This document shows positions 5,421 to 37,694 of a stretch of 64,000 bases of DNA, piece after piece. Below the pieces are notes generated by a model. It was not told where the DNA came from, did no database searches, and worked only from the letters and a program-made list of their open reading frames with translations. The stretch's first letter is position 1, and the number at the start of each line of letters is the position of its first letter. The position numbers were made by a program, and so were the translations under genes. The DNA is from Candidatus Uhrbacteria bacterium (GTDB lineage Bacteria; Patescibacteriota; Patescibacteriia; UBA9934; GWF2-40-263). Location: contig JACPHU010000028.1 in assembly GCA_016188495.1 (NCBI GenBank), forward strand, positions 38,325-102,324, given 5' to 3'.

Positions 5421-5436
5421 GAAGCTTGTTTTTTGG
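5410..5436 (+). terminator. Rho-independent terminator after murG
   Basis: 18-nt perfect palindrome AAGCTTCTTAAGAAGCTT followed by GTTTTTTGG; the stem overlaps the murG stop codon. Confidence 0.6.
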
Positions 5437-5537: not shown

Positions 5538-5666
5538 AGAGATATGTGATTATGAATTAACCATTAAAGTATAGGCCTGTAACGGATCTCTTGCAATTAT
5601 TGAAACAGACTGCTATATTTTTGACCGTTATAGAAGTATTTTTTATTACCTACACTGTGTCTGTGT

Positions 5667-5796
5667 GGAATTCTTTCAAAATTTGATGAGATTGCCTTGA
5701 ACGGGCTGGCAGCCCCAGAAGACGTACCCAAACGTACGTCTTCTGGGGTGCCTGGGTGCCCGTGAAAGGCAAGATCGCAAATTTTGAAAGAATTCC
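5667..5796 (-). repeat. Copy C of a ~130-nt palindromic repeat element family (minus orientation), 7 nt upstream of tRNA-Lys
   Basis: The reverse complement aligns with copies at 25678, 37566 and 7644. Shared cores are CGATCTTGCCTTTCACGGGC and GCCCGTTCAAGGCAATCTCATC. The terminal stem GGAATTCTTTCAAAATTTG/CAAATTTTGAAAGAATTCC covaries with GAGATCTTTGCAAAACTCG/CGAGTTTTGCAAAGATCTC in the other copies. An internal 15-bp hairpin CCCCAGAAGACGTAC/GTACGTCTTCTGGGG occupies the position of the CCCTAT/ATAGGG hairpin in copies A and B. Confidence 0.6.
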
Positions 5797-5803
5797 TCTA
5801 TGA

Positions 5804-5878
5804 GCGCTGGTAGCTCAGGGGTAGAGCAAGAGCCTTTTAAGCTCGTGGTCGCGGGTTCAAATCCCGCCCAGCGCACCA
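5804..5878 (+). tRNA. tRNA-Lys (anticodon TTT)
   Basis: Cloverleaf: acceptor GCGCTGG/CCAGCGC, D-arm GCTC-AGGGGTA-GAGC, anticodon stem AGAGC/GCTCG with loop CTTTTAA, T-arm GCGGG-TTCAAAT-CCCGC, discriminator A and an encoded CCA. Confidence 0.9.
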
Positions 5879-5930: not shown

Positions 5931-8732
5931 ATGAATGAACATCTTTGGCACCACCTTCCTCAGGAAGAGATATTGAACATGCTTCACAGCTCTGAACAAG
6001 GACTCACTTCGTCTGAAGTCCTGCATCAGCAGAACCGATATGGAAAAAATGAGTTTCCAAAAGAACACATAGACGGTTGGATGTCTGTTTTTTTAAGACA
6101 GGTCAAAAGTCCTCTGATCATTATTTTGATGATGGCAGGTGTGATCAGCTTCGTTCTCCAGGAATGGGTGGATGTTTGGGTTATTTTTGCCGCTGTCCTA
6201 CTCAATACCGTCATTGGATTTGTTCAAGAGTATAAAGCGAATAAGGCGTTAGAGAATATTCAGAAGCTTGTTCAACCCCGTTCGTTTGTGTACCGCGATG
6301 GAAGAAGCATCGAAATTTTTGCAGAGGACGTTGTTCCAGGCGATCTCTTGATGTTATCGATGGGTGATCGTGTGACGGCTGATGCTCGATTGCTTGAAGC
6401 GATCGAACTGACGACCAACGAATCAGCTCTGACAGGGGAATCTTTTCCTGTGGGTAAAGAAGTCGGGCTTTGTGAAGCTCAAACCTCGTTGGCTGACAGA
6501 TCGAATATGGTTTACACAGGAACCAGCGTGATTGGCGGACGCGGACGGGCCGTGGTTGTCGCCACAGGCATGCGTACAGAGTTGGGGGTGATTGCCGGGT
6601 TGGTTGAGAGCACTGTCCAAACACAAACGCCGCTTCAGGATCAGTTAACCGTTTTAGCCAGATGGCTGGCGGGTCTTGTTTTGGTTTTGGTGACCGTTCT
6701 TTTTATCATAGGGCTTCTTTCGGGAAGGGTGATCACGGAAATGTTTGAAATGTCTGTTGCTGTTGCTGTTGCGGCAATTCCAGAAGGGCTTGTTGTGTCC
6801 GTGACGATCATTCTCGCGATCGGCATGCAAAGAATTTTGCGTCGTCGCTCGCTGGTTCGTCGTCTTGTTGCTGCGGAGACTCTGGGAAGCGTCTCGGTTA
6901 TTTGTTCAGACAAGACAGGAACTCTGACAGAAGGAGAGATGCGTGTCACCCATTTGATGCATTCTGGTCAGACGAAGATGCTCCCTTTTTCTAGAGACAA
7001 CGAATCGGATGCCATCACGAAAAAAATGTTTGAAGTGATGGCACTGTGTAATGATGCGACGTTTATTGATAGCTCGGAAGGGGAACGTATCAATGGAAGC
7101 GCGACAGAGCGAGCTTTGCTAATGGCAGCTATGGATTCGGGAATAGATCTGACAGCTGTGTTAAAAACAAATCCCCGGACAGGAGAAATTCCATTTAATA
7201 GCAGTTCTAAATTCATGGCGATTGCTTGTACTTCTGTACAAGGCATACAGTTTTTGTTGAAAGGAGCTTCCGGCCCTGTCTTGGATATGTGTACGCAGGT
7301 TCAGATTGCCGGGAACATTGTTGAATTGGATTCTCAGCAAAGGAAACAATTAGAAATTCAGGAAGGGACATTAACCCAACAGGGGATTCGCTTGCTGGCA
7401 CTGGCGTTTAAAATCCCTCTGCCTTCTGAAGGGACATTGTCACGTCAATCTCTTGGCGGTTTTACGTTTTTGGGATTTGTGGGGTTACGGGATCCTTTGC
7501 GAACGCAGGCGCGCGAGCAAATTGCATCGGCTGCGCGTGCCGGAGTACGAACGGTTCTTATCACAGGCGACCATCCACAAACCGCCCGTGCGATTGCCCA
7601 AGAGGCGGGGCTCCTGTCAGATCCTGAATCTCTCCTGGTTGTGAATGACGAAACTCGCGATCTTGCGATTTACAGGCGCCCGTCGACCCCACTCTCCCTA
7701 CGTCTGAGTAGGGTTCGTGGGGATCGACAGCCCGTAAATCGCAATCTCATCGATTTTCCTCATTCACAGCTCTTGGTTGTGGGAAGCGAGTTGGACGCCT
7801 GGAGCGATGAAGAACTTTTTCAAAAAGTTAACTTGATTGGAGTCTATGCCCGTGTTGAACCGCGCCATAAAATTCGTATTGTCAAAGCTTGGCAAGCTCG
7901 TGGAGAGGTCGTGGCCATGGTCGGGGACGGAGTCAATGACGCTCCTGCGTTGAAAACGGCTGATATCGGGGTTGCACTAGGATCTGGAACCGAGGTGGCT
8001 AAGCAAGCATCGGATTTAATCCTTCTGAACAATGATTTGGGAACGATCACGGCAGCCATTGAAGAAGGTCGGGTAATTTTTGATAACATCCGCAAAACAA
8101 GTGTCTATCTACTTGCGGATAGTTTTACGGAGCTGATTCTTATCGGAGGTTCTCTGTTGATGGGATTACCTCTTCCGTTATTGCCCGTGCAAATATTATG
8201 GATCAACCTGATCGCCGATAGTTTTCCCACCATCGGCCTTACGCTTGAGCCTCCGGAAGAAGACGTCATGCGCATCCCCCCGCGTGCCCGTACGGAACCT
8301 GTGTTGAATCGGGAAATGCTTACACTCATTTTTGTCATTGGTGTTATTACGGATCTGGTGTTGTTTGTGCTCTATTTTTGGTTATTAGGTTCCATCGAAA
8401 GCATTACCGAGGTTCGTTCTATTTTGTTTGCGGCTGTTGGTATTGATTCTCTTTTTTACGTGTTTGCCGTAAAGCGGCTGCGTACGAGTATTTTTCGCTC
8501 CAATCCTTTTTCTAACCCATGGCTCTTGTTGGGAGAGGTGATTGCTTTGTCTTTGATGCTGCTGGCACTTCTTCATCCGTTCTTCCAGGTCATTTTTGAA
8601 GTGACTCCTCTTTCCTTGTATGAGTGGATGCTATTGCTTATGATGGGAATGATTAAGCTTCTGGCGATTGAAGTCGTCAAAGAGATTTTTTTAAGAAAAA
8701 AGCCAGTGCATGCTCCTCAAGCAATAAATTAA
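5931..8732 (+). CDS. P-type cation-transporting ATPase (P2A, Ca2+/Mg2+-like)
   Basis: Motifs TGES, DKTGTLT (phosphorylation site), ITGDH and GDGVNDAPALK; 10-TM architecture; 933 aa. It contains an in-frame 46-codon insertion, listed separately. Confidence 0.85.
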   Translation: MNEHLWHHLPQEEILNMLHSSEQGLTSSEVLHQQNRYGKNEFPKEHIDGWMSVFLRQVKSPLIIILMMAGVISFVLQEWVDVWVIFAAVLLNTVIGFVQEYKANKALENIQKLVQPRSFVYRDGRSIEIFAEDVVPGDLLMLSMGDRVTADARLLEAIELTTNESALTGESFPVGKEVGLCEAQTSLADRSNMVYTGTSVIGGRGRAVVVATGMRTELGVIAGLVESTVQTQTPLQDQLTVLARWLAGLVLVLVTVLFIIGLLSGRVITEMFEMSVAVAVAAIPEGLVVSVTIILAIGMQRILRRRSLVRRLVAAETLGSVSVICSDKTGTLTEGEMRVTHLMHSGQTKMLPFSRDNESDAITKKMFEVMALCNDATFIDSSEGERINGSATERALLMAAMDSGIDLTAVLKTNPRTGEIPFNSSSKFMAIACTSVQGIQFLLKGASGPVLDMCTQVQIAGNIVELDSQQRKQLEIQEGTLTQQGIRLLALAFKIPLPSEGTLSRQSLGGFTFLGFVGLRDPLRTQAREQIASAARAGVRTVLITGDHPQTARAIAQEAGLLSDPESLLVVNDETRDLAIYRRPSTPLSLRLSRVRGDRQPVNRNLIDFPHSQLLVVGSELDAWSDEELFQKVNLIGVYARVEPRHKIRIVKAWQARGEVVAMVGDGVNDAPALKTADIGVALGSGTEVAKQASDLILLNNDLGTITAAIEEGRVIFDNIRKTSVYLLADSFTELILIGGSLLMGLPLPLLPVQILWINLIADSFPTIGLTLEPPEEDVMRIPPRARTEPVLNREMLTLIFVIGVITDLVLFVLYFWLLGSIESITEVRSILFAAVGIDSLFYVFAVKRLRTSIFRSNPFSNPWLLLGEVIALSLMLLALLHPFFQVIFEVTPLSLYEWMLLLMMGMIKLLAIEVVKEIFLRKKPVHAPQAIN
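7644..7769 (+). repeat. Copy D of the palindromic repeat element, inserted in-frame within the P-type ATPase CDS
   Basis: AAACTCGCGATCTTGC...CAGCCCGTAAATCGCAATCTCATCGATTTTCC aligns with copies A and B. Covarying internal pairs: GCGATTTAC/GTAAATCGC and CCCTAC/GTAGGG. The element plus a 12-nt direct repeat CTCYTGGTTGTG (7632-7643 and 7770-7781) totals 138 nt, or 46 codons, with no stop. It encodes NDETRDLAIYRRPSTPLSLRLSRVRGDRQPVNRNLIDFPHSQLLVV, placed where homologous ATPases have the contiguous loop LLVVGSELD..SDEEL. Confidence 0.55.
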
Positions 8733-11588: not shown

Positions 11589-11604
11589 TTATGTGATTTG
11601 AAAC

Positions 11605-11640
11605 AAAAAATAGCCTTTTGTGAGGCTATTTTTTGTTTTT
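11605..11640 (+). terminator. Rho-independent terminator downstream of murD and R1 copy I
   Basis: AATAGCCT-TTTGTG-AGGCTATT followed by TTTTGTTTTT. Confidence 0.6.
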
Positions 11641-23805: not shown

Positions 23806-25677
23806 ATGCAACGTCTCTCTATAAAAATGACAACTTCTTTTTTGCGCACGGTTCTTCTTGCCGTTGTGGCTTTTTTGTTTTTCTTTTTTGTTTTTGCCGC
23901 ACATCCCGCACTGGCTCAACAGACAGCCTTTGAAAAATTTGGCGAGGCTTCCACGCTTCCAACCGATGATATCGCGATCATCGTTGCGCGAGTTATTCGG
24001 GCTATTTTTGGAGTTGTTGGGATTATTTTTACCGGATTAGTGATTTATGCGGGATTTCTTTATTTTCTTGCGCGCGGGGAACCAGAACCTGTCAAAAAAT
24101 CCAAAAAAATTCTTCAACAGTCCATCATCGGGTTGATTCTGATGTTTTCGTCCTACAGTATCGCAACCTATATTTTAAACCGTCTTCTTGAAGCGGCCTT
24201 CACCAGCAGTGTGTCCTCGACTGCAGAAGCTTACAGTGAACCGTTATCCGGCGCGTTGGGCGGTGGCATTATCGACGATCACTATCCAGAACGTAATGCA
24301 ACAGATATCCCTCGCAATACAAGAATTTTTGTCAGTTTTAAAGAAGCGATCGACCCTGCCAGTCTTATAGAAGGGTATGAGTCTAATCCTGATTCGACCG
24401 CGTTGAATACTGATAGCGTGCTTATTTATCCAACCGATGATGGATCCGGAAGCGCGTTGCTTTCCGATCAGGTGGTGGTGACGTTTGACGAAGAACAGAA
24501 AGTGTTCGTGTTCGATCCTGTCGGTTACTTGGGAAGTGCGGATAAAGACATCAATTACACAGTGACACTTACCACAGAAATCCAAAAAGCGGACGGAAGC
24601 GATGCTTTTACAGGAGCGTATTCGAGCGGTTATGAATGGACCTTTGAAGTTTCAACCGAAATCGATCTCACGCCTCCCTATATTACGTCCGTGGTTCCAA
24701 AACAGGATGCAAAAGAACCTCGAAATGTCACGATCGAAATAAATTTCAGCGAAGCGATGGATCCGGTGGCAAGCACTGGTTCTTATCTTGTCAGTCAGGA
24801 TCCTCTTTTTACCAATATTCAAGTTCTGGATGAAAGCGGAAAGAATGTTGAAGGAGCATTTGAAATAAGCAACGGATATCGCACTGTCAGTTTTACCACG
24901 ATCGACGCCTGCGGAGAGGATCCTTGCGGGGATACCATTTACTGTCTCCCAACCAATCAGTTGATTACATCTTTTGCCAAAGCGGCCACCTTGAATGATG
25001 CGGAAGTTCCGCAGGCAAAATCCAGCGGAGTCACATTTGACGGGTTGGTGGATTCCGCAGCCAATTCGCTTGACGGAGATCATGACGGGGATGCCTGCGG
25101 ATCTGAATTGGATACGGTCAGCTGTAAGGACGAGGAAGCAAACGACAACTATCAGTGGACGTTTACTACGACCGATGAAATCAATGACATTGTTCCTCAA
25201 GTCGTTTCTGTAAATCCTGGAATAGAAGAAGATGAAATCAGCCAGACCAATGACGTAGAAGTGAGATTTAATACGTTTCTCAAGTCTTCTACCGTAAAAA
25301 CCGACAGTGTTTCACTTTGGCCGGATCCTTATTATGAATTTTGGTTCGCTGTTAGGAAGGATAATACCGATACGGAAACAGTCGTACATCTTGAACATCC
25401 GACGTTGGTGAGCACGGATGAAGGAGGATGGGATTACTGGCCGGTACTGACTCACGAGATAAAGAGTACGTATCAGATCTGTATGTATCCTGCGATCGGC
25501 CCGAATTCTTGTCTGGATCCGGATACAGGTCGTAGGTCAGCCAATGCTCCTTATTGCTGCAACGGGGTTCCTTCCGCTTCACAGTGTCAGACGGATACAC
25601 AGGACGAAGTGGATGGAACACTCTATCCGGTACCGAACGATTACGTTTTGCCTAATAATACAGAAACTGAATTGTAA
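23806..25677 (+). CDS. Secreted/cell-surface protein with Ig-like (bacterial Ig/SbsA-type) domains and a TrbC/VirB2-pilin-like N-terminal module
   Basis: Signal peptide ending AHPALAQ. A conserved ~110-aa module with two hydrophobic helices is shared with the N-terminus of the next gene. Repeated beta-rich segments such as TPPYITSVVPKQDAKEPRNVTIEINFSEAMDPVASTGSYLV are typical of bacterial Ig-like domains. Confidence 0.55.
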   Translation: MQRLSIKMTTSFLRTVLLAVVAFLFFFFVFAAHPALAQQTAFEKFGEASTLPTDDIAIIVARVIRAIFGVVGIIFTGLVIYAGFLYFLARGEPEPVKKSKKILQQSIIGLILMFSSYSIATYILNRLLEAAFTSSVSSTAEAYSEPLSGALGGGIIDDHYPERNATDIPRNTRIFVSFKEAIDPASLIEGYESNPDSTALNTDSVLIYPTDDGSGSALLSDQVVVTFDEEQKVFVFDPVGYLGSADKDINYTVTLTTEIQKADGSDAFTGAYSSGYEWTFEVSTEIDLTPPYITSVVPKQDAKEPRNVTIEINFSEAMDPVASTGSYLVSQDPLFTNIQVLDESGKNVEGAFEISNGYRTVSFTTIDACGEDPCGDTIYCLPTNQLITSFAKAATLNDAEVPQAKSSGVTFDGLVDSAANSLDGDHDGDACGSELDTVSCKDEEANDNYQWTFTTTDEINDIVPQVVSVNPGIEEDEISQTNDVEVRFNTFLKSSTVKTDSVSLWPDPYYEFWFAVRKDNTDTETVVHLEHPTLVSTDEGGWDYWPVLTHEIKSTYQICMYPAIGPNSCLDPDTGRRSANAPYCCNGVPSASQCQTDTQDEVDGTLYPVPNDYVLPNNTETEL

Positions 25678-25807
25678 GAGATCTTTGCAAAACTCGCGAT
25701 CTTGCCCTTCACGGGCGCCCGTTGACCACACTCTCCCTATGAGGAATAGGCTTCGTGCGGCAGGGCAGCCCGTTCAAGACAATCTCATCGAGTTTTGTAA
25801 AGATCTC
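25678..25807 (+). repeat. Copy A of the palindromic repeat element, filling the spacer between the 23806 gene stop and the giant-gene start
   Basis: GAGATCTTTGCAAAACTCG...CGATCTTGCCCTTCACGGGCGCCCG...CCCTATGAGGAATAGG...GCAGCCCGTTCAAGACAATCTCATCGAGTTTTGTAAAGATCTC. The terminal 19-bp stem has one G-U wobble (GCAAAAC vs GTTTTGT), allowed only in plus-strand RNA. The copy has no stop in one frame. Confidence 0.6.
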
Positions 25808-25816
25808 ATAAACCAC

Positions 25817-28800
25817 ATGCATATCAGACGTTTTTCTCTCATTGCGGGTTTTTTCTTGGCACTGTGCCTCAGTGTCGGAATTTTTGTTGCCCCTCCCGTC
25901 TTTGCGCAGGAAGTGGATTTGGAAAGTTTTGCCCAAACCGCTGGGTTTTCTACCGATGCGGACATTACGGTCATTATCGCCAGGCTTATTCGCACCGCCA
26001 TCACGCTGGTTGGGGTCGTGACGGTTGTTTTTATCGTGTACGGAGGATTTGTCTTAACAACCGCTGGCGGAAATCCGGAACGTGTCAAAACAGCAAAGAA
26101 AATTATTACCAATGCGGTTTTAGGCCTTGTTTTAGTCTTCGCTTCTTTTGCGATCGTCCAATTTATTTTGAATGCTCTTGTTTCAGCCACAACAGCAACG
26201 ACAGAGACTTCCTCTGACAGTTCCTCTTCTTCTTATTCTGATGGCGGAGAAAGTTCTGTCTTTTATCTTTACTCCGTTAATACACAGTGCGCGGAGGCTC
26301 TGCAAAATTTTGAGCTCCAATTTGTTTTTTCTAAAAAGGTTGATCCCGATACTGTTTCAAACGGTATTACTGTGATACAGGGAACAGCAGAAACTGGAGG
26401 ACCGGTCGTGAGCGGAACATTCTCTACTTCAGGAAGCACTGTGACGTTTGTTCCTTCTCAGTTGTGCGATTCTCCTTATGAGACCGAACATTGTTTTGAT
26501 CCCAATACCGATTATTTGATAGGCATAGATTCTTATTACATTAAATCCACCTCTTCCCAGTCTTTGACGTGTACTACCAGCTATCCTTGTTCTTTTTCTT
26601 TCACCACAGGCGATCAAATAGATGTGGATGATCCATCCGTAACGATGGATGCTCCAGAGGACGGAGAGAGTTTTTACGCAGGTTCCATAGAACTTTTACA
26701 AGCTCTAACGACAGACGATAGCGGAGTTTCCAAAGTTGATTTTTATGTGATTGACGATGAGGAAGCGATCTATTCTTCCGGAGTTAATTTTTCTACCGCC
26801 GGAGCCCTCTTAGGAGAGAATCAGGAAAATGCTTTTTTTACAGATACAACGCAGGAGTGGGCTACGCAAGGTTATACAACAAATCAAGAGTATGATATTT
26901 GGGCAAAGGGATCTGATTGTGCCGGAAATACTGATACCGCTTCGCACATAAGCATTGTGTTGCGCGCGGCAAACTGCAATAACGGCGTCCTGGATTCCGA
27001 TTTGGGCGAGACAGATGTGGATTGCGGAGGCGAAACATCAAGTGCTTATTATTGCGGGGCCTGTGAAGGAGATGAGTGTACAGAGAATGCAGATTGTTCC
27101 ACCGGACAATGCCAAGACGGGCAGTGCATCGTCACTCCTAAAATAGAAAGCGTGTCTCCAGGGGATGGCGCCCCAAATAATTTGATGACGATTTCCGGGG
27201 AAGGTTTTGGGGAGGTAGCCGGAACCATCACTTTTTTGGGTACGGAAAGCGGAGATGAAGTACAGGTCAGTGCGTATTCTTGTAATAGCGTTGTCCAGTG
27301 GTCCGATGACGAGATCATCGTTCAGTTGCCTGTGGGGGCCGTTGACGGACCTCTCTTGGTTACCACTGCCGATGTTGAACCTGAATTCGACCGAACGGAT
27401 GACGATTATGGACCTTCTATTGCAGATGTTGATGTCAACGCGATTGTTCGGCCCGGCATCTGTCTTTTAGATCCTAAGACGGATGTTGCCGGAAGTTCGG
27501 TTGATGTTTATGGAAACGGTTTCGGAGATGCTCAAGGTTCATCCATGTTTTATTTCAGCAGTTACAAAACGAGCTCCTATCTTTCTTGGGAAAATACGCT
27601 GTTGGGCGTTGCTGTCCCGACGATCAATTCTGGAAAATATTCTACGCAAGTATTTACGGGCGACTATACATGTATTGATACGTCCGGAGTTTCCACAGGC
27701 ATTGTCTGTTTAGAAGACAGTGATTGCCACACAGACGAAGGGGAGACCTGCGCCACCTCTTGGTGTTCTGAAACGTTGGAGTACTGTACGGACGATGATT
27801 CCTGCGCAGACACGGATGGAACTTGCGAATCAGTTCGTGTGGGATCCAATAAAGTCTCTTTTACCGTTAAAGATACCTCGACGGAAACCGTACCTATTAT
27901 TTCTTCTGTCGATTCCGGATGGATGGCCTGTTCTGGAGGCTCTAATGATGGAGGACAATGTGGAGAAGATACCGATTGTCCTGATGGAGGCACCTGTGAA
28001 GATGCTTCGAACTGGGGTCCTCCGGGCCAATACGTCACTATTTACGGAACGAATTTTGGTACCTCTACAGGTTCTGTGTATTGGTATAACGAAGACTTAG
28101 GTTATCTGGCGCTGGGGGATACGGATTTTCCAGATGCCTGCGGAGATGATTTTTGGCACGATACGTCTATTACCGTGAAGGTTCCTGAAACCTATTTAAC
28201 CGAACAACAAGATGCCATTAAACCCCTCACGCACGCTCTTTTTGTTGAACGTTCTGACGGGGCAAAGTCCGAGACTCAGGATTTTGTGGTATTAGACGAT
28301 CAACCAGGTCCGTCGATTTGTGAGATCAACCCATCTTCTGGTCCGGTTGGCACAAAACTGACGTTGTACGGGGATCATTTTGGCACAGGCGAAGGATCTG
28401 TGATGTTCTATTCCGAAAAAACAGCTTCTTACGGTTTGTGGGAAAACGATGAAATTTCTTCCGTGTATGTCCCTTCCGATTCTGAAACGGGACCTGTGTA
28501 TGTCAAAGAAGAGAGTCATGGGTACACATCCAACTCTGTTAATTTTAGCGTGGGAGATTGCCGTGAAGAGAGTGATCTGTGCGAAGAGGGCGAATCTTGC
28601 TGTTCCAATGGAGCCTGTTCGACCAGTTGTGAAACGCAAAACGCGGTTGCTGCCCACTATGCCTTTAAAATAACCACAGGCATCACTCCCAATACTCCGC
28701 ACGTGGTGATTGAGTGTACCGAAAACGGCGTTTCGCCTTCTCCATGGGAAGGATGGAGCGATCCGGAAGATATCTGCGTGACCGCTTCTGTTCAGGCTGA

Positions 28801-31800
28801 ATTTGATCGGACCATGAATCAAAGCACGGTGAATACATCTACAGTGGTTGTAGAAAAATGTATAGAAGTATACACAGCAACAGACGAGAGTTCAGGATTG
28901 GGAGAAGAGGGGGAATGTAAAACTTGGGAAGCATTGGTTCCTTCCGATTTTGATACCGATGAAACCGGTTTTTCGTGGGACCCGCCTTCCGGAGGATTTG
29001 CCACGAGCACTCTTCATCGGGTGACTTTGAAAGGAGTCAATCAGATTCAGGCGGACGAAAGCGAAGGAGGAGGATATCTTGAACAAGATTACCAATGGGA
29101 ATTTACCACCAGTTCTTCCGGAGCTTTGTGCGAAGTGGGTGAGGTGAACGTTCGCCCGGATGAATACACGCAAACAGAACAAGAGGACGTGAATTATTCT
29201 GCCCAACTTATTGCTCAAAATGACCGTTGCGTGGCCATGAGCTGTTCCGGTTATGCCTTACATTGGCAGTCAGATTTTGACGGAGCCCTTATTGCCGTTG
29301 CAGAACCTGGCGAAGGAGTCTGCGAAAATGACGTCTCAGCTGTTGACGAGACGCCAGCAAATGATCCTGCCCTTATTACGACAACTGTGACAAACGCTGC
29401 CAGCAAGCCTTCCGGTACAGGCGCCTTGACGATTAATTTTATTGATCCGCAGATCAACGATTATTTCCCGCAGTGTTCGACCGCTTGCGTGAACGCCTTG
29501 CCGTGGGCAGAATTTAATACGGTGATGTCAGCATCCACGATCAATGAGAACAGCGTCAAACTTTATTCTTGTCTCAATTCTTTGTGCGAGCCTTCTCAAA
29601 TAACGCAAGTTTCTTTTATTGATTCAATTAGCGTTAACGAGGCAGCCGATCGTTTCTCTATCCATTTTAAAGATACTGAAACCATGACAGCGAATACGTG
29701 GTATCGCATCGTTGTGGATGGGGACGCGATTACTTCCCAAACAGGCGTTCCTCTTTCAGAGTCCGGTTCAAATGAAGGTTCGGACGATAACCGTTATTTC
29801 CCAAATGACTTTTCTTGGATTTTTAAAACCAAAGACGATGCGGTGAGCTGTAAGGTGGATACGGTTTCTTTAGATCCAGACCTTGCCGACATGAACTACG
29901 TCGGAGAGCGTCAGGAGTTTGAAGCTACGCCAAAAGGGGAGCCTGATGACTGTTCCGAGCAAGGGCAAACGCTCCAGTCCGGATCTTATGTATGGGAAGC
30001 ATGGAGCGCAAAAGATGATCCAAATACCGTAGGAGCCAGTTCAGGAGGCGAGAATGAGCAGGATGAACTTGTTGCTTACATGATCCAAGATGGAGCCATT
30101 GAGCTCACCTCAGAACTCCCTGCGTACTGTACGGCCAGCTGTCTGAATGCGGGAGCTCCTGTGACCAGTGCACAGGGCGTGTGTGGCAATGGAGTTGTTG
30201 AAAGCTCTGAAGAGTGCGATGACGGAGTTACGACCGCCGGCGACGGATGCTCTTCGTTCTGTTTGGACGAGGGTTCGACCAGTTACGGATCTGTTTGTGG
30301 CGATAAGGTTAGAAATTATTTTGCTGACGAAGGAGGGGAAGACTGCGATGACGGCAATACAACCAATGGCGACGGATGTTCTGCCGAATGTCTGGATGAG
30401 GGGGCTCGAGCCATTAGTTCTGTTTGCGGTGATGGGACCAGAGACTGGGCTGAGAATACCGGAGGAGAAGACTGTGATGATGGAAATAAAATAAGCGGAG
30501 ACGGCTGTTCTCAAAATTGTTTGAAGGAGGGCTCTCTTTCTGAAGAAAATGTATATGCTGTTTGCGGAGACGGAACCGTGAGCGATGGAGAAGATTGCGA
30601 GGATGGGAATACAGTCAGCGCAGATGGCTGTTCTTCTGCCTGTTTAAATGAAGGAACCAAAGCATGTCCCACGTCCGCCTCTACAGGAAATTGCTGCGGA
30701 AATGGAATCAGGGGAACAGGTGAAGAATGCGATGGGGAAGAAGGATGTTCCAGCGCCTGTTTGTGGGCAGGTTCTTCTTATCTTTATGAAGCCGCTTCCT
30801 TTTGTGGAGATGGAGACAAAGAAACAGGTGAGGAATGCGATGCGCAAACGTCCTCAAGCTTCAAGACTGGAGATTACGGCGTCGCTCAAGTAGCAAGCGG
30901 TGCTCCTTTGGAAGTGAATAGCGAAACTCACTATGCGTTATCTACTGTTTCTGTCACGGTTGATAGCGATGTCAGCGGCGAAGCGACGTTACAGTTAGAA
31001 TGTTCTTGTACGACCGACGAGTCTTGCGGCGAGACAGGTTTGGGATGCGGCGCAAGCAATTGCTGTTATGAACGTCCTGCTATTGTTGATGGACAGGTCT
31101 ATCCTGCCGATAATACAGCCAGTTTTAGTGCTGGCGACGACGAAGGGTACTGCCGCAATTCCGCTATCTGGATTGAGTTTACTCAAGTCATGGATGAAGC
31201 GACCTTTGACCTGACGGAAGATTCCGATGGAGACGGAATGATCGATCAAGAGGAATTTAAAGGTAATCTTTATTTGGACTTGGTTTCTGTTGATACCAAT
31301 GAAGATGGCATACAAGAAACGGTTGACGAACAGAAAGAGTGTCCTCAAGGATATGAAGGAGCGGCCGCTTCTGCTCAGGGAACGGTTTTACGCGTTTGGA
31401 ATTGGTTGAAGGATCTCGTTTTGGGATGGTTTGGACGCGATGCTGAGGCGTCTTCCGTTTTTGCTTGTCATGTTCCTATTCATTATGAGATGTATCAAAA
31501 TTCTGATGAAACTTTCCATGTTTATTTAAGATACGGATCTTTGCTTGAAAAAAATGCGATCTATCGGTTAGTCGTTGTTGGCGATAACCAAGCGGACGAT
31601 TCTGAGAAGACGGGGGTATTGAGCCAACAGCAGGTCACCGTATGCTTAGGAGATGATTGCGAAAATGCGAGTTTCGAACAGTCGTTTGCTATCGGAGACG
31701 ATATCTGTGATTTGGACCGCGTGTTGGTTGAAGATCAGGGTAATGTTGATGCTACGGAGTATGAATCAGCCAGTATTGGATTTTTTAGTTCTACCAACGA

Positions 31801-34800
31801 AGAGCACGCCTTTATTGCCACACCGCAGACGTATCATGCAGGAAGCGGCTATCAAGAAATTTCTCCGTTAGCCGATTTGTATGAATGGACGTGGGCTTGG
31901 GGTTCTTCCAAGACTGACGAAACAGAATCAGATATCGTGGCGATTACCGAAGGGGATGCAGCAGATGATACAACGACCCATTATTCCGCTTCCGGCGCCA
32001 CAGGATACGAAACTGTCTTAACTTCGGCGGAAATTACGGTTGATGAACTTTTTACTCCCACTACCCAATCAACGATCGTGACAGGAACACAGGAAGTGTC
32101 CGCTTTGGTGTGCGAGAATCCTTGGCCAGCATTGGATTCTGCTTCAGGATTTCCTTATGTAGAAGATCTTATTCCAACCAATTTTTCTTTCTATTATTGT
32201 CGTGATGCCGGAGATTTTGGAACAGATGACGACCTTCCTGCGCTCGGAGACCCGATCGACGTCAGTTCCCTTTCCTCTTCAGGGATTATTCAGGAATTGA
32301 TTTTTAAGATAGAGGATTCAAGCGATGCTATCGGTGTACGCGTGGTATCCAATGACACCTATCTTTCGCCTTCCTCGTGGGTAGAAGCGCAAGGATTTAC
32401 CGGCTCATTTTCACAAACCCAGTTAGACGGGTATGAGGCGGTTGAGTCTGGCACCACGGTGTATACCTCCGCGGCCAACCAAAGCTTAGGATCGGTTTAT
32501 CCGAATGTCTATGTTGTGTCTTATAACCAAGACGCAGGGGAAGAAGCACAGCAGATTTTTGATCAAATTTTGGAAAACTGGAGATTTAATGCCAATACGG
32601 ATGAAGTGACGGATATCAATCTGTGTTCAGTGGATGGGGATTATGTAACCGATGAAGAAGGAAATTTTCTTACCTGTAGCTGGAATGGGGATTGTTTGGA
32701 GACCTGTCAGGACAACGTTTGTTCTGTTTCTGGAGATACGTGTGAGGCAGATGCGGATTGTCCTCTGGCATTAAATACAAGCACTCCTGTGGTGTGTGAT
32801 GCACAAAAAGCTAAACTCACACGCGACACCAAGCGTCTTACCGATATCACGGACATTCAGTCCACGCTTGAAACCTTTGGAGAAAATAACAGGCATTGTT
32901 CTGTGACAAAAGGGCAGAGTTGCGAAGAAGACGCAGATTGTCCTGGAACGGAAGAGTGTGTCGCGGGATTTCCTGCCGTTCAATCAGGAACGTTTGTTCC
33001 GGCGCTTTCCAATTCTCTTTGGGGATCTTGGAATGCTTCTTTGGCCAATGAACTAGGAACAACGCTTCCGACAGATCCTGTTAACGCGTTTTACGATTGT
33101 TCAGAAGAGGGATTTGACTCAGCTTCTTGTTGGAACGGAGAAAGCGGAATGTTCATATGTCCGGAGGATTCTCATGTGTACGGCTATCAGAGCATTGGAG
33201 GAGAGTCCTATATGTTGTATGCGCAGCTTGAGACTTCGGGCAATGTGGCTTGGGCCTATGATATAGACACCGATACCTCGGATGAAGCTGGGATTGTGGT
33301 TGAATATCCAACCGGGTACGCTCCAACGAGCACCCCTTTGGAGGATGGGTTTGAATCCACTCCCCAATTTTGCGATGCAGGAACATGGGGAGACTCAGCT
33401 TTGTGCGGTGATGGAACGCAAGGAGCAACAGAAACATGTGAAATAGGAGATACGAAATCGATTGCTTGTACGGACGATGTGACAAGTGAATTGGGAACGA
33501 TCACCTCCGCTTGTCTAACGGATTGTTCTCAATACCAAACAGAGGTTCAGGCCGAGACTGCGGGCGCTGACTGTATTGCCTATGAATGCGGAAACGGCGT
33601 TGTGGAGGATTTAGAATCCTGTGATGACGGTTCGTTAAACGGAACTTACGGTCATTGCAGCGATACCTGTACGTTTACAGGTGCATTTTATTGCGGAGAC
33701 GGTTATTTGGCGGATTCTGAGCAGTGCGACTGTGCTACAACCACCAACTATAGCAGTGTAATCACCGATACAAGCAGTTGGGCCTACGGCAACAGCTGTG
33801 TGGTTTCCAACGGCCAATACGCTTCCAATATCGATGTGAGTTGTGCGTACAACTGCACGGAACCAGGACCTTCTTGTGGAGACAAGGTCGTAAATGGTGG
33901 CGAGGCCTGCGATGGGGATTATGAAGAATGGAGTGGAGCTCTTTGTGCAGACGCAACGACTTGTTCAACTGATAGTGATTGCGAGACGGGGTCTTGCGGC
34001 GATGGAAACGTTTCTTGCGGAGTCGGAGATATCTGTACCGATTTCACGGACGTGGGAGAAACTTGTACCTCGGACAGTCAATGCGATTCACGTGAATGTT
34101 TAGCAGGAGTTTGTACAAGCGCGACGGATGCCGGATCTGTGTGCGTCGTTACAACGTCAGATCCAACCGGCGGTTGCGAATCTGGCTTGTGCGGAGATTT
34201 TAATTACACTCTTTTCCGTTATCGAACCTGCAGCAGTACGTGCGGTTGGAACAGTTGGTCGGAATGCGTAGGCGGAACACAAATTTGCGGAAACGGCACG
34301 CTGGAAGGTAATGAAGCGTGCGATGACGGAAACACTTCAAACAATGACGCTTGTTTAAATACCTGTCAGGTAAACGTCTGCGGAGATGACGCAGTGTACG
34401 TGGGTGTTGAGTCGTGTGATAACGGTTCTTCCAACGGAACGACGTGCGAGGCCTCTTATGACGGCACGTGTAACTACTGTAATTCAACCTGCCAATATAA
34501 AACTCAGTCAGGAGGATATTGCGGAGATGGAGTGCTCAATGGCACAGAGGTCTGTGACGGAGGGTATTCTACACAATTAAAATATTTTGACGTTGAAAAC
34601 CAGAAAACAACCGGGGCTTGTACAACTCATGGTGCGACAACCACAGACGCAAGCGATACGTATACGTGTCGGTGGTTAGGTGTGTGCGATGGGGGTTCAG
34701 AAAATGGAGATTTTTGCACGCTTGATGTAACGACTTACAATTCAAGCGGGATCGTGCAACCGCTTTCAAGTGGTACGGATACCAACACATGTACAGATGG

Positions 34801-36046
34801 AGAGTGTGTTGCTCCTATTTGTGCCGATAATTGCGCATCTTCTTGTCCTGTGAGTTATCAAACAACAGGCGTCCTTGTTCAAAGCGAAATTTCCGGAAGC
34901 GAACCTGCTGAATTTATCGATTTGTATAGCTTTTTGAATGACGAAGGCGATTCGCCGGATAACGCCACGCTTTATATCCCTGCCTGTAATGTGGCGACGG
35001 TATTAACCGCAGATCTTGATGATCAAAATATTACGCCACCGGACGTGGATATCGTGTTTGTGACGGATCTTACCGGAAGTATGGGTTGGACTTTGGATGG
35101 TTCTCGAAAGATTGATTTGGCGGTTAATTCGACTATCAATGCGATCGAGGAGTTATTCGATGCCTACCGTTCTACAGATGCCACAATGAAGATAGGCTTG
35201 GTTTCCTATACGGTTGATTATGGAGGCGGCGCATTTTGTAACAGCGCTTCCGCTCAAACCGATGGAGCGTACACGGATTCAGTTCTGGTAGATGATTCGT
35301 CTGAGGCAGCTCTTATCAGCTATGTCCAAAGTTACTCCACATGCGTTACTTCCAGTAACGGTTCCACACCTACCTACAATGGTATTGAAGAAGCTGTCAG
35401 TCTCCTTAAGAGCTCATCATCGACCGCTGCGGTGAAGATCGTCATTGTCTTGGCAGACGGAGATTATGACTGGATTGATTCCGCGTTGAGTACAGATGGT
35501 TGGGATGACACTACCGATTCCGTGACCAACGAAGCGTGTAACAGTACGTATTCGAAGGTCTACAACGGAAATACATACACAGAGAAACCTGCCTGCGCTG
35601 CTGACATGTACGATGATTTTGTTGACAGTTCAGATATTCTTTTCTATACCGCCGCGATCACGAGCGATTCAACCTATCAAGGGTACACTTCCCATATCTC
35701 AAGCAATGACTGCGCATGGGAGACTTCCAGTTCAGCCTCTAAAACTTCGGATTGTACAGGTAATTACGCCTTTGCAGGGGCAACAGAGGATGAAATTGAT
35801 CAAATGTACGAATCCATCGTCGATTCCATTTTAGGAACGAACGTTACCTTTACGGCCACGGATGAAGATGGCGATACCCATACCACCACCGGTGAGGTTC
35901 AAGCAGGGTCTGATGTTGAACTTCCGTTTCCAGAAGGATTCGTCTGCCAAAGCACGCAGCAAAGCATTCCTTTGCGCAACGCCTTTTACGGTGAGGGATT
36001 CATCAGCTTTAGCGATTTTAACCTGACCTATTGTCCTTACCAATAG
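25817..36046 (+). CDS. Giant (3409 aa) cell-surface adhesin-like protein with a pilin-like N-terminal module, IPT/TIG repeats, Cys-rich repeats and a C-terminal VWA domain
   Basis: Start at the ATG at 25817 (MHIRRFSLIAGFFLALCLSVGIFVAPPVFAQ signal peptide); the track's upstream extension runs through repeat A. IPT/TIG-like repeats include PKIESVSPGDGAPNNLMTISGEGFG and ICEINPSSGPVGTKLTLYGDHFG. More than 8 Cys-rich repeats have the form CGDG...GE.CDDGN...GDGCS..CL.EG (Myxococcus-type cysteine-rich repeat). The VWA domain carries the MIDAS motif DIVFVTDLTGSM. Confidence 0.7.
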   Translation: MHIRRFSLIAGFFLALCLSVGIFVAPPVFAQEVDLESFAQTAGFSTDADITVIIARLIRTAITLVGVVTVVFIVYGGFVLTTAGGNPERVKTAKKIITNAVLGLVLVFASFAIVQFILNALVSATTATTETSSDSSSSSYSDGGESSVFYLYSVNTQCAEALQNFELQFVFSKKVDPDTVSNGITVIQGTAETGGPVVSGTFSTSGSTVTFVPSQLCDSPYETEHCFDPNTDYLIGIDSYYIKSTSSQSLTCTTSYPCSFSFTTGDQIDVDDPSVTMDAPEDGESFYAGSIELLQALTTDDSGVSKVDFYVIDDEEAIYSSGVNFSTAGALLGENQENAFFTDTTQEWATQGYTTNQEYDIWAKGSDCAGNTDTASHISIVLRAANCNNGVLDSDLGETDVDCGGETSSAYYCGACEGDECTENADCSTGQCQDGQCIVTPKIESVSPGDGAPNNLMTISGEGFGEVAGTITFLGTESGDEVQVSAYSCNSVVQWSDDEIIVQLPVGAVDGPLLVTTADVEPEFDRTDDDYGPSIADVDVNAIVRPGICLLDPKTDVAGSSVDVYGNGFGDAQGSSMFYFSSYKTSSYLSWENTLLGVAVPTINSGKYSTQVFTGDYTCIDTSGVSTGIVCLEDSDCHTDEGETCATSWCSETLEYCTDDDSCADTDGTCESVRVGSNKVSFTVKDTSTETVPIISSVDSGWMACSGGSNDGGQCGEDTDCPDGGTCEDASNWGPPGQYVTIYGTNFGTSTGSVYWYNEDLGYLALGDTDFPDACGDDFWHDTSITVKVPETYLTEQQDAIKPLTHALFVERSDGAKSETQDFVVLDDQPGPSICEINPSSGPVGTKLTLYGDHFGTGEGSVMFYSEKTASYGLWENDEISSVYVPSDSETGPVYVKEESHGYTSNSVNFSVGDCREESDLCEEGESCCSNGACSTSCETQNAVAAHYAFKITTGITPNTPHVVIECTENGVSPSPWEGWSDPEDICVTASVQAEFDRTMNQSTVNTSTVVVEKCIEVYTATDESSGLGEEGECKTWEALVPSDFDTDETGFSWDPPSGGFATSTLHRVTLKGVNQIQADESEGGGYLEQDYQWEFTTSSSGALCEVGEVNVRPDEYTQTEQEDVNYSAQLIAQNDRCVAMSCSGYALHWQSDFDGALIAVAEPGEGVCENDVSAVDETPANDPALITTTVTNAASKPSGTGALTINFIDPQINDYFPQCSTACVNALPWAEFNTVMSASTINENSVKLYSCLNSLCEPSQITQVSFIDSISVNEAADRFSIHFKDTETMTANTWYRIVVDGDAITSQTGVPLSESGSNEGSDDNRYFPNDFSWIFKTKDDAVSCKVDTVSLDPDLADMNYVGERQEFEATPKGEPDDCSEQGQTLQSGSYVWEAWSAKDDPNTVGASSGGENEQDELVAYMIQDGAIELTSELPAYCTASCLNAGAPVTSAQGVCGNGVVESSEECDDGVTTAGDGCSSFCLDEGSTSYGSVCGDKVRNYFADEGGEDCDDGNTTNGDGCSAECLDEGARAISSVCGDGTRDWAENTGGEDCDDGNKISGDGCSQNCLKEGSLSEENVYAVCGDGTVSDGEDCEDGNTVSADGCSSACLNEGTKACPTSASTGNCCGNGIRGTGEECDGEEGCSSACLWAGSSYLYEAASFCGDGDKETGEECDAQTSSSFKTGDYGVAQVASGAPLEVNSETHYALSTVSVTVDSDVSGEATLQLECSCTTDESCGETGLGCGASNCCYERPAIVDGQVYPADNTASFSAGDDEGYCRNSAIWIEFTQVMDEATFDLTEDSDGDGMIDQEEFKGNLYLDLVSVDTNEDGIQETVDEQKECPQGYEGAAASAQGTVLRVWNWLKDLVLGWFGRDAEASSVFACHVPIHYEMYQNSDETFHVYLRYGSLLEKNAIYRLVVVGDNQADDSEKTGVLSQQQVTVCLGDDCENASFEQSFAIGDDICDLDRVLVEDQGNVDATEYESASIGFFSSTNEEHAFIATPQTYHAGSGYQEISPLADLYEWTWAWGSSKTDETESDIVAITEGDAADDTTTHYSASGATGYETVLTSAEITVDELFTPTTQSTIVTGTQEVSALVCENPWPALDSASGFPYVEDLIPTNFSFYYCRDAGDFGTDDDLPALGDPIDVSSLSSSGIIQELIFKIEDSSDAIGVRVVSNDTYLSPSSWVEAQGFTGSFSQTQLDGYEAVESGTTVYTSAANQSLGSVYPNVYVVSYNQDAGEEAQQIFDQILENWRFNANTDEVTDINLCSVDGDYVTDEEGNFLTCSWNGDCLETCQDNVCSVSGDTCEADADCPLALNTSTPVVCDAQKAKLTRDTKRLTDITDIQSTLETFGENNRHCSVTKGQSCEEDADCPGTEECVAGFPAVQSGTFVPALSNSLWGSWNASLANELGTTLPTDPVNAFYDCSEEGFDSASCWNGESGMFICPEDSHVYGYQSIGGESYMLYAQLETSGNVAWAYDIDTDTSDEAGIVVEYPTGYAPTSTPLEDGFESTPQFCDAGTWGDSALCGDGTQGATETCEIGDTKSIACTDDVTSELGTITSACLTDCSQYQTEVQAETAGADCIAYECGNGVVEDLESCDDGSLNGTYGHCSDTCTFTGAFYCGDGYLADSEQCDCATTTNYSSVITDTSSWAYGNSCVVSNGQYASNIDVSCAYNCTEPGPSCGDKVVNGGEACDGDYEEWSGALCADATTCSTDSDCETGSCGDGNVSCGVGDICTDFTDVGETCTSDSQCDSRECLAGVCTSATDAGSVCVVTTSDPTGGCESGLCGDFNYTLFRYRTCSSTCGWNSWSECVGGTQICGNGTLEGNEACDDGNTSNNDACLNTCQVNVCGDDAVYVGVESCDNGSSNGTTCEASYDGTCNYCNSTCQYKTQSGGYCGDGVLNGTEVCDGGYSTQLKYFDVENQKTTGACTTHGATTTDASDTYTCRWLGVCDGGSENGDFCTLDVTTYNSSGIVQPLSSGTDTNTCTDGECVAPICADNCASSCPVSYQTTGVLVQSEISGSEPAEFIDLYSFLNDEGDSPDNATLYIPACNVATVLTADLDDQNITPPDVDIVFVTDLTGSMGWTLDGSRKIDLAVNSTINAIEELFDAYRSTDATMKIGLVSYTVDYGGGAFCNSASAQTDGAYTDSVLVDDSSEAALISYVQSYSTCVTSSNGSTPTYNGIEEAVSLLKSSSSTAAVKIVIVLADGDYDWIDSALSTDGWDDTTDSVTNEACNSTYSKVYNGNTYTEKPACAADMYDDFVDSSDILFYTAAITSDSTYQGYTSHISSNDCAWETSSSASKTSDCTGNYAFAGATEDEIDQMYESIVDSILGTNVTFTATDEDGDTHTTTGEVQAGSDVELPFPEGFVCQSTQQSIPLRNAFYGEGFISFSDFNLTYCPYQ

Positions 36047-36907: not shown

Positions 36908-37567
36908 ATGTTTGATGATATTCATCCCGAACCTGAGGATATGTTCGATGAGACCGACAAGGTAGCTCCTCAATTGAATCCGCCCACGGCTCCTTCAATA
37001 GGTGTTTCTTCACAGGGTTCTGCCTCTGGGGTTGCAAATCCTCCATCATCTTCTGACGGGTCTCTTTCAATGGGGGAATTGAGCGAACCTAAAAAAACAG
37101 GTCCATGGAAAGCCGTTCTTCTTATTGTGGGCATTGTAGTGGTTGTAGCAGGCGCCCTGTTTCTTTCCATGAAAATTTTAAGTTCCAAAACAGATGTTGT
37201 TCCAGAACCTCCCGTCGTTACTGACATTCAAACTCAGCCTCCCGTATCAGACACAGCTCCTACCCAAGAACAGCCCGATCAGCAAGAACCGGTCATCACA
37301 AAGGAACCTGAAAAAACGTCTTCGCGTGTAGATACCGACAAGGATGGACTTACTGATGAAGAAGAAACGGAATTAGGTACAAGCTCGAAGACGGCAGATA
37401 CGGACAGTGACGGATTGTTTGACTTTGAGGAAGTCAAGACATGGGGAACAGATCCCGTTAATCCTGATACGGATGCAGACGGATATCTGGATGGGGCAGA
37501 AGTGAAAGCGGGTTATAATCCAAATGGGCAAGGGTCATTACGTGAAGCGCCTTCAGAATCTTCCTAG
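36908..37567 (+). CDS. Membrane-anchored paralog with a TSP3-like Asp-rich C-terminal module
   Basis: TM helix AVLLIVGIVVVVAGALFLSM, a Pro/Gln-rich linker, then DTDKDGLTDEEE...DTDSDGLFDFEEVKTWGTDPVNPDTDADGYLDGAEVKAGYNPNGQGSL, paralogous to the C-terminus of 36050..36877. Confidence 0.5.
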   Translation: MFDDIHPEPEDMFDETDKVAPQLNPPTAPSIGVSSQGSASGVANPPSSSDGSLSMGELSEPKKTGPWKAVLLIVGIVVVVAGALFLSMKILSSKTDVVPEPPVVTDIQTQPPVSDTAPTQEQPDQQEPVITKEPEKTSSRVDTDKDGLTDEEETELGTSSKTADTDSDGLFDFEEVKTWGTDPVNPDTDADGYLDGAEVKAGYNPNGQGSLREAPSESS

Positions 37568-37694
37568 ATCTTTGCAAAACTCGCGATCTTGCCTTTCACG
37601 GGCGCCCACCCTCCACACTTTCCCTATTGTGAATAGGGTTCGTGCGGCAGGGCAGCCCGTTCAAGGCAATCTCATCGAGTTTTGCAAAGATCTC
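37566..37694 (+). repeat. Copy B of the palindromic repeat element, overlapping the stop codon of the upstream gene
   Basis: AGATCTTTGCAAAACTCG...CGAGTTTTGCAAAGATCT is a perfect 18-bp terminal stem. The internal hairpin CCCTATT-GTG-AATAGGG covaries with CCCTAT-GAGGA-ATAGG in copy A. Confidence 0.6.

Follow-up and report, generated by a model that had tools for sequence, protein, structure and literature searches.

Background

Several kinds of short palindromic repeat have been described in bacterial genomes. The enterobacterial repetitive intergenic consensus, or intergenic repeat unit (ERIC/IRU, 127 bp), of enterobacteria and the Correia elements, or Neisseria miniature insertion sequences (NEMIS), of Neisseria are transposable elements of the miniature inverted-repeat type (MITEs) for which effects on transcripts involving RNase III or RNase E have been reported (PMC10969869). 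About half of the Rickettsia palindromic elements (RPEs) are reported to lie within genes, where they encode a conserved peptide (PMC10969869), and REPINs, the hairpin-forming doublets of repetitive extragenic palindromic (REP) sequences, combine invariant blocks with a hairpin spacer that shows 'common compensatory changes' (PMC3116915). Bacteria of the Candidate Phyla Radiation (CPR), or Patescibacteria, are not mentioned as hosts in the taxonomic list of a 2024 review of prokaryotic MITEs (PMC10969869). In this paper, we describe a family of palindromic elements of about 130 nt, four copies of which (A to D) lie in a 64-kb stretch of DNA from a member of this group, Candidatus Uhrbacteria; this whole stretch is referred to below as the window.

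The four copies are very probably non-autonomous mobile DNA elements of about 130 bp, MITE-like and with a REPIN design, in Candidatus Uhrbacteria, a group of very small cells. The family is an undescribed example of a familiar kind of selfish repeat, and a search of the literature on MITEs or palindromic repeats in Uhrbacteria, Patescibacteria or the CPR found nothing on it. It resembles MITEs in its size (roughly 50-600 bp in MITEs), lack of coding capacity, inverted ends, target-site duplication, large number of copies and presence/absence differences between genomes, whereas the variability of its terminal repeat sequence is atypical of them.

Four copies in the window and a family in related genomes

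The copies in the window are as follows.

25678..25807, + strand: copy A, full element, 19-bp terminal stem including one G.T wobble, covariance model score 120 bits
37566..37694, + strand: copy B, full element, perfect 18-bp terminal stem, 122 bits
5667..5796, - strand: copy C, full element of a separate subfamily, perfect 19-bp terminal stem and 15-bp apical stem, 123 bits
7644..7769, + strand: copy D, diverged element lying in frame in a P-type ATPase gene, 108 bits

A first-pass annotation, made from the sequence of the window, had reported these four copies, and all of them are present with the sequences that it described. They align over their full length with a mean column identity of 79%, and a search of the window for either of the shared cores that it had pointed out, allowing one mismatch, gives three occurrences (in A, B and C), against none expected from 100 shuffles; copy D is more diverged than the other three, yet its score with the family covariance model identifies it as a full-length member. 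The terminal stems are likewise as first described, that of copy C being a perfect 19-bp pairing of GGAATTCTTTCAAAATTTG and CAAATTTTGAAAGAATTCC and that of copy B a perfect 18-bp one, and the wobble in the stem of copy A is G25687-T25798. Each copy folds as a single long imperfect hairpin, in which the apical part differs in sequence among the copies and stays paired in every fold, again in agreement with the earlier description. Compared with shuffled sequences, the aligned strand gave z = -7.8, -11.0, -13.9 and -8.4 for the four copies, and the opposite strand folds better still. The covariance model that the annotation had proposed was built from the family; it found exactly four copies in the window, together with further copies in related genomes, and in a filter-free scan of the window for a fifth copy it gave none, the weak hits being short unrelated hairpins.

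The two blocks common to the four copies (CGCGATCTTGC, a gap of 55-85 nt, and CAATCTCATC) served as a search pattern, which was scanned against one genome per species and matched 95 DNA stretches. Outside the window, 60 of the matches, from 15 assemblies labelled almost all as Candidatus Uhrbacteria or Patescibacteria, also carry a flanking terminal stem; the remaining 36 lack the stem, lie in unrelated taxa and were rejected as chance matches. The alignment used here contains 64 distinct full copies, that is, the four of the window and these 60. Loci of other genomes are designated by L-numbers; the 8-kb pieces around known copies that were searched for a partner enzyme amount to ~0.45 Mb of Uhrbacteria DNA in total. 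The genes of the window itself have matches among Uhrbacteria proteins. L098 is a metagenome contig that is syntenic with the window at ~80% nucleotide identity, and holds another family copy beyond the 64 aligned. The family spans at least 17 genomes of Candidatus Uhrbacteria. JAHFIQ01 alone (~1 Mb in few contigs) has at least 17 copies that match the pattern exactly, the covariance model adds further diverged copies to such matches, and the density in these genomes is roughly 15-60 copies per Mb.

The copies are 126-170 bp long. Enlarged variants of 155-170 nt (L032:2555-2722, L032:5931-6099, L059:1173-1342 and L070:991-1145) carry an extra GC-rich hairpin at one internal position, which in both L032 copies starts with CCCGCCCGAACGAACG. 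Subfamilies are common to different species, with 92-98% identity at non-orthologous sites, while the syntenic DNA of JACRJW01 and JAHFIQ01, two of the same genomes, is ~75-80% identical; this near-identity points either way, to recent exchange among Uhrbacteria that occur together or to a constraint acting on the element as a whole. A pattern scan of viral contigs, where four sequences matched and none fits the model, gave no sign of a phage vector. In a search with Rfam 15, only two tRNAs in the whole window pass the gathering scores, and the best match to copy A at E up to 10 reached 14 bits, against cut-offs of 50-61. Typical copies were also seen on L004 (MHBF01) and L090 (CAYHRJ01), contigs in metagenome-assembled genomes that bear the labels Lentisphaerae and Gammaproteobacteria, respectively; these are likely Uhrbacteria contigs placed in the wrong bin, and horizontal transfer is less likely.

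Target-site duplications and empty sites

In the test for target-site duplications, the boundary of a copy was set at the outermost pair of the 19-bp stem, and the expectation was derived from re-paired flanks. At least four identical flanking bases were found in 25 of the 73 copies tested, compared with 1.0 expected, the identity extending over exactly 4 nt in 19 copies, 5 nt in five and 6 nt in one. The commonest duplication is therefore 4 bp long, and its sequence is variable. Such 4-bp duplications imply insertion at a staggered cut.

Clean comparisons of filled and empty sites between related species were obtained in three cases, two of them with a 4-bp duplication. L077 is filled and reads CCA-TATT-element-TATT-TAG, whereas the empty sites of L011 and L051 have TATT or TACT once. 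In L098 a copy at 4288-4423, between the genes for FtsW and MurG, reads GAAAATA-(AAGACC...GGTCTT)-AATAAAAATCC, whereas the window is empty at ~3915-3925, with GAAAATAAAAACC; the duplication is AATA, and the copy splits the TAA stop of the FtsW gene and rebuilds a stop. The third case is copy D of the window, whose site is empty in the syntenic L098; copy C is missing from L098 as well, and the two sequences differ by three gains or losses in 11.5 kb. Similarly, a copy of L011 is missing from L051 and L077, and the copy at L051:7267 is missing from L011. Contigs of independent assemblies end within copies (L001 and L100), as expected of a dispersed repeat. Around L051:7180-7270, next to the copy at 7267, stands a tRNA gene whose orientation is the reverse of that of its L011 orthologue (L011 taken as reverse complement), a small rearrangement at the insertion site.

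Compensated stems and an invariant subterminal motif

From the outside to the inside, the element consists of a terminal inverted repeat, an invariant asymmetric motif, covarying paired segments and a variable apical hairpin. The terminal inverted repeat is ~19 bp long and commonly GAGACCTCTGCAAAAC/GT; it is highly variable (GGGACTGTTCCCGAATG, GGAACTATTTCCAAATT, AAGTCGCCCCGAAACT and others) and always complementary. In the invariant subterminal motif, CGATCT of the 5' arm stands opposite ATCTCAT of the 3' arm, forming 1x2 and 2x2 internal loops that flank two base pairs; read on the opposite strand (AUGAGAU/AGAUCG), it presents a bulged A and tandem G.A. Its positions in the window are the following.

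25697..25702 (copy A), 37584-37589 (copy B) and 7658-7663 (copy D), + strand: CGATCT, 5'-arm motif, the 5' side of the two asymmetric loops
5772-5777 (copy C), - strand: CGATCT, 5'-arm motif, invariant
25782..25788 (copy A), 37669-37675 (copy B) and 7744-7750 (copy D), + strand: ATCTCAT, 3'-arm motif, the 3' side of the same loops
5686-5692 (copy C), - strand: ATCTCAT, 3'-arm motif, invariant

The motif is kept in diverged subfamilies with otherwise unrecognisable stems (L068, L059, L051 and L039). By comparison with known structural motifs, made by eye, the invariant core was rejected as a hammerhead (no three-way junction), as a k-turn (no 3-nt bulge beside the tandem G.A) and as a bulge-helix-bulge splice motif. 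Integron attC sites, with their RYYYAAC ... GTTRRRY core sites, were also ruled out, as the sequence at the base of the stem differs between copies (CGAGTTTTG, CGACTTTTG, CGAATTTGG, CGCATTCGG) and the copies are dispersed, unlike attC arrays.

Across the 64 copies, 96.1% of the cells at paired positions are indeed paired, against 80.0% in shuffles, with none of 500 shuffles reaching the observed value; 287 cells are changed on both sides, against 78 in shuffles, and these include transversion swaps such as CG to GC. Such double changes occur at 22 of the 30 consensus pairs, wobble intermediates are scarce (20 cells), and in a control with the partner slid by 1-3 columns pairing is only 33-46%. 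The earlier observation that pairing, not sequence, is kept therefore extends from the four copies to the whole family. In single copies, on the other hand, terminal stems are decayed or broken (L003, L011, L028, L035 and L048), so that differences between subfamilies are compensated and damage inside individual copies is not. This pattern is expected if only hairpin-competent lineages go on multiplying.

Symmetry could also be regained, with no selection on an RNA, by template-switch repair in quasi-palindromes, and strong covariation is equally expected of a hairpin-dependent mobile element; it therefore does not discriminate in favour of an RNA function. The first-pass annotation had offered two interpretations, a structured RNA or a hairpin-forming mobile element. 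The latter is supported by the duplications and empty sites, while the former does not follow, compensation being no proof of it. The annotation had further argued against a terminal inverted repeat recognised by a transposase; the outer repeats are indeed too variable for this, but the invariant subterminal motif is a candidate recognition site.

Strand asymmetry of the fold

All 74 copies examined are more stable on the strand opposite to that of the alignment (mean -85.3 versus -73.2 kcal/mol). The isolated mismatches on the aligned strand are 44 A.C/C.A versus 9 G.U/U.G, counts that include positions inherited within subfamilies and so represent fewer independent events; the A.C mismatches turn into wobbles if the opposite strand folds. 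Some of the asymmetry is also due to the invariant core. It suggests that selection acts on the fold of one single strand, either of DNA or of RNA. The G-U wobble of copy A, from which a plus-strand RNA had been deduced, is present, but the excess of A.C mismatches across the family favours the other strand.

Between co-directional genes the copies lie in both orientations, 29 versus 16 (convergent genes 7, divergent genes 8), and the commoner orientation places the weaker-folding strand in the mRNA. A mutational bias is unlikely to explain the A.C excess, since with these orientation counts deamination on the coding or leading strand would give a bias of the other sign.

Placement relative to stop codons and tRNA genes

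The copies lie overwhelmingly in tiny intergenic spacers. A stop codon that belongs to an open reading frame (ORF) of 80 codons or more overlaps an element end, or stands no more than 9 nt from it, in 34 of the 72 copies tested, compared with 2.4% of random positions, and the element junction (T|GAGACC or TA|AGACC) often recreates a stop. Split and regenerated stops were seen in L006 (GAAG-T|GAGACC... and, downstream, ...|GAAGTAA), in L039 (GTC-T|GAG... and ...|GTCTGA), in L062, in L098 and at copy B of the window (TCC-T|AG and ...|CCTAA). This placement may reflect a target preference, or survivorship in genomes with spacers of 10-20 nt. The canonical element ends carry an outward GAGG.

The settings first described for copies A, B and C, in operon spacers, on a TAG stop (copy B) and beside tRNA-Lys (copy C), are confirmed by the coordinates. 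Copy A starts directly 3' of the TAA stop (25675-25677) of a gene for a T4SS-pilin/Big_5 protein (T4SS, type IV secretion system), and fills the spacer up to the ATG at 25817 of a giant surface protein gene of ~3,410 codons. The first bases of copy B complete the TAG stop (37565-37567) of the upstream TSP3-repeat gene, and the downstream gene has its ATG at 37711; its flanks, CCT|...|CCTAA, suggest that the original stop would have been a TAA, split by the insertion. Neither promoter-like nor terminator-like signals were found adjoining copies A and B. The two copies lie in the spacers of what is a typical CPR giant surface-protein cluster: two adjacent genes at 23806-36046, whose products have Ig-like domains after a T4SS-pilin-like N-terminus, the second being the gene of ~3,410 codons, and after them genes for TSP3-repeat proteins.

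Four copies lie 4-7 nt upstream of a tRNA gene (copy C of the window and copies in L046, L087 and at L051:7267), and all four are oriented such that the better-folding strand enters the transcript. At copy C, which ends 7 nt from tRNA-Lys, the relevant features are these.

5804..5878, + strand: tRNA-Lys(UUU), with copy C in its leader region
5591..5619, + strand: promoter-like site TTGCAA-17-TATATT, which in L098 lies directly upstream of tRNA-Lys

In the window, copy C and 35 nt lie between the promoter-like site and tRNA-Lys. As this conserved site now stands upstream of the element, the hairpin of copy C should be part of the pre-tRNA leader. L098 lacks the ~35 nt (AGAAGTATTTTTTATTACCTACACTGTGTCTGTGT, 5632-5666) that separate the promoter region from copy C, and there may have been two events at this site.

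Two further kinds of hairpin were seen in the window. At 60508-60620, in what appears to be an intergenic gap, lies a unique 113-nt hairpin with a minimum free energy of -55 kcal/mol, whose 22-nt arms show 91% complementarity; none of the fetched loci contains a second copy, and Rfam has no match to it. Short perfect or near-perfect palindromes flanked by A/T stand at gene ends (5403-5434, 977-1024, 11601-11638 and 51376-51411), and look like ordinary bidirectional terminators unrelated to the family.

Copy D within a P-type ATPase gene

Copy D, which had not been recognised as genic, lies in frame inside an ORF of 933 codons, and is the only demonstrably intragenic copy among the 74 examined. 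The features concerned are as follows.

5931..8732, + strand: intact P-type (Ca2+-type) ATPase gene that hosts copy D
7632..7643, + strand: left 12-nt direct repeat of copy D (CTCCTGGTTGTG); the empty site of a relative has a single GTGGTTGT
7770..7781, + strand: right 12-nt direct repeat of copy D (CTCTTGGTTGTG)

Every catalytic motif of the ATPase is intact. In an alignment with 15 homologues, one of them 79% identical, 46 residues are missing from every homologue at the site of copy D, where they read ...SES-NVVVGSELD and the window encodes ...PESLLVV(NDETRD...PHSQLLVV)GSELD; the syntenic empty site in L098 is GAATCCAACGTGGTTGTCGGAAGC. The insertion measures 138 bp, made up of the 126-bp element and a 12-nt direct repeat with one mismatch, and adds 46 codons (NDETRDLAIYRRPSTPLSLRLSRVRGDRQPVNRNLIDFPHSQLLVV). 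It is tolerated in the gene because it is in frame and free of stops. Speculatively, the 12-nt repeat could stem from a later 8-bp duplication that restored the reading frame by taking the insertion from 130 to 138 bp.

A frame free of stops in all copies, giving a shared peptide-like sequence, had been noted by the first-pass annotation. Such a frame exists in the four copies of the window; in the family at large, at least one forward frame is open in 54 of 64 copies, none is common to all copies, and eight of 64 are closed in all six frames. The frame of copy D also differs from that of copies A and B across the 5' half. The peptide is consequently no family-wide feature: none of the frames is conserved, and a search of 5.8 billion proteins with the peptides of the D insert and of the open frame of the commonest subfamily gave no candidate sharing three 5-residue words. 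Apparent read-through ORFs in L082, L078, L039, L060, L003 and L061 were rejected as arginine-rich junk or genes that start past the element.

Search for a partner enzyme

Genes for a Y1_Tnp transposase (~280 aa, Pfam E = 4e-13), similar to those of the insertion sequence (IS) IS200 and to the REP-associated tyrosine transposases (RAYTs), are present at L022:474-1421 and L085:4498-5413, the latter 61 nt from a copy of the 130-nt family. They are flanked by inverted repeats of 29-30 nt that begin with GGGGTCAGGTCT and have the 11-mer head GGGGTCAGGTC. The same head bounds palindromes of 56-61 nt whose interiors are wholly different yet perfectly paired (L045:11-66 and L060:7921-7981), and solo copies occur in L014, L028 and L088; it is absent from the 130-nt family, and the L045 palindrome shows no target duplication. 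Together with Y1_Tnp, these repeats look like a second repeat system in the CPR bacteria, of the REP/REPIN-RAYT kind and with no obvious link to the 130-nt family.

Inverted repeats that enclose ORFs proved to be either pairs of copies with ordinary genes between them or the unrelated Y1_Tnp units, and an all-against-all comparison of the loci revealed no multi-copy IS. Searches for a partner by half-sites and by solo terminal inverted repeats were too permissive to inform.

Discussion

The duplications, the presence/absence differences, the occurrence in both orientations and the decay of single copies together fit selection on the transposing lineage rather than a host RNA function at each locus. 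The element would be moved by an enzyme supplied in trans, which would cut with a 4-bp stagger and recognise the invariant motif within the folded or paired element, not the terminal sequence. Only lineages that keep the hairpin would keep transposing, which would give compensated changes between subfamilies and uncompensated decay within copies. The relevant folded strand would be the opposite of copies A, B and D as written, on which the mismatches would become G.U or G.T wobbles and tandem G.A. Once inserted, the copies would be co-transcribed with their neighbours as mostly neutral passengers, with a possible effect on mRNA processing or stability.

Several observations weigh against mobile elements of this kind. 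Neither the window nor the ~0.45 Mb of Uhrbacteria loci yielded an autonomous element or a transposase whose ends match, although absence from 8-kb pieces around copies is weak evidence. In addition, 26 of the 73 copies have no duplication at the canonical boundary, copy D is flanked by a 12-nt repeat instead of the 4-nt one of the family, and terminal inverted repeats that vary so freely are unusual for elements moved by DDE transposases. The near-identity of subfamilies, the invariant motif and the wobble asymmetry, the last with its inherited share of counts, also fit purifying selection on a functional RNA.

The family may have an RNA role. The element would then be a structured or cis-regulatory RNA module beneficial to the host, such as a hairpin for processing or stabilisation between cistrons, or an RNA bound by a protein, whose invariant loops would make up a motif of tandem G.A and bulged A on the opposite strand, with mobility as the means of dispersal only. 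We consider this quite unlikely. The very strong covariation, an asymmetric motif invariant across at least 17 genomes, biases of wobble and stability that favour the same single strand, and subfamilies 92-98% identical between species with genes ~75-80% identical are what such a module would show, as are copies at gene 3' ends and stops and just upstream of starts, with an outward GAGG at canonical ends, and the four tRNA-leader copies with the better-folding strand in the transcript. However, the commoner of the two orientations transcribes the weaker-folding strand, orthologous sites do not retain copies, single copies decay, and one is situated within a coding sequence. No Rfam family matches, even with E relaxed to 10, no promoter-like or terminator-like signal stands beside A or B, and the placement at stops is expected from purifying selection in a genome with short spacers. 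A replicator specified by structure is another reading, which we hold to be unlikely as well: a CPR enzyme, or an RNA- or DNA-binding protein, would recognise one folded strand by its bulged-A/tandem-G.A hairpin and insert it with a 4-bp staggered duplication, and alternatively or additionally copies would have been co-opted as portable intercistronic RNA modules, with the stop rebuilt, an outward GAGG, and control of polycistronic mRNA and of tRNA-leader processing. Descriptions of DDE-type MITEs and of Y1/REPIN systems do not include the combination of a strand recognised by its structure and a 4-bp staggered duplication.

Movement as single-stranded DNA by a Y1 (HUH) transposase of the RAYT/IS200-like type, in the manner of a REPIN, would account for the strand asymmetry as that of a folded single strand. 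The design is that of reported REPINs, extragenic, with invariant arm blocks and a compensated spacer hairpin (PMC3116915), and Y1_Tnp genes occur in two of the same genomes, in L085 close to a copy. The genes in L022 and L085 are flanked by the GGGGTCAGGTC-type repeat, though, and not by the CGATCT/ATCTCAT element, and the arms of the element are not themselves conserved REP-like hairpins. The 130-nt family has 4-bp target duplications of variable sequence, whereas the L045 palindrome has none and, to our knowledge, Y1 transposition of the IS200/IS605 type makes no such duplications; this explanation is very unlikely. The least probable of all, to the point of being hard to credit, is a selfish element like the RPEs, adapted to live inside protein genes by means of a tolerated peptide. 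Copy D, a stop-free in-frame insertion of 46 codons in an otherwise intact ATPase, is what it would lead one to expect, as are the open frames of 54 of 64 copies and the reduced host genome. It is contradicted by the rarity of intragenic copies (one of 74), the eight copies closed in six frames, the unlike frames of D and A/B over the 5' half, and the empty peptide searches.

If the copies are mobile elements of the MITE type, as we think very probable, selfish hairpins of 130 bp reach dozens of copies and turn over fast in CPR/Patescibacteria genomes of ~1 Mb that are almost without spare intergenic DNA. In such a compact genome an insertion can be harmless when it lands in a stop codon and rebuilds it, or in frame in a P-type ATPase. 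The family is a handy marker of strain and species dynamics and a cause of assembly breaks in metagenome-assembled genomes of Uhrbacteria; in annotation, its copies should be masked and not taken for small ORFs or N-terminal extensions. It also calls for caution in RNA discovery, as compensatory covariation can arise from a hairpin-dependent mobile element and is alone no proof of a functional RNA.

Comparison with known systems

The family resembles ERIC/IRU and Correia/NEMIS in being small and non-coding, in having terminal inverted repeats and a hairpin over the whole length, and in its dozens of intergenic, co-transcribed copies with target-site duplications. As in ERIC, size variants arise by internal insertion, and the variants of 155-170 nt (two in L032, one each in L059 and L070) resemble enlarged ERICs. 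By analogy, effects of RNase III or RNase E on transcripts, as for ERIC and Correia, are plausible in the 130-nt family too. It differs from both in that there is no sequence relationship, the host belongs to the CPR/Patescibacteria, and the conserved part is a subterminal asymmetric motif, not the sequence of the terminal repeat; its duplication is 4 bp of variable sequence, whereas Correia elements duplicate TA.

With REPINs the family shares invariant blocks in both arms, a compensated hairpin that is proposed to matter in the single-stranded state, and an extragenic location. Unlike REPINs, it shows target duplications of 4 bp, has an additional outer stem that varies and lacks arms that are conserved REP hairpins, and the RAYT-like genes in these genomes carry another flanking repeat. 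Finally, like RPEs, it is palindromic, ~130-150 bp long and found in a reduced genome, and copy D lies in frame in a gene of an essential type without breaking it; unlike RPEs, it has one intragenic copy in 74 and no conserved peptide. The likeness to RPEs is thus real for copy D and is not a property of the family.

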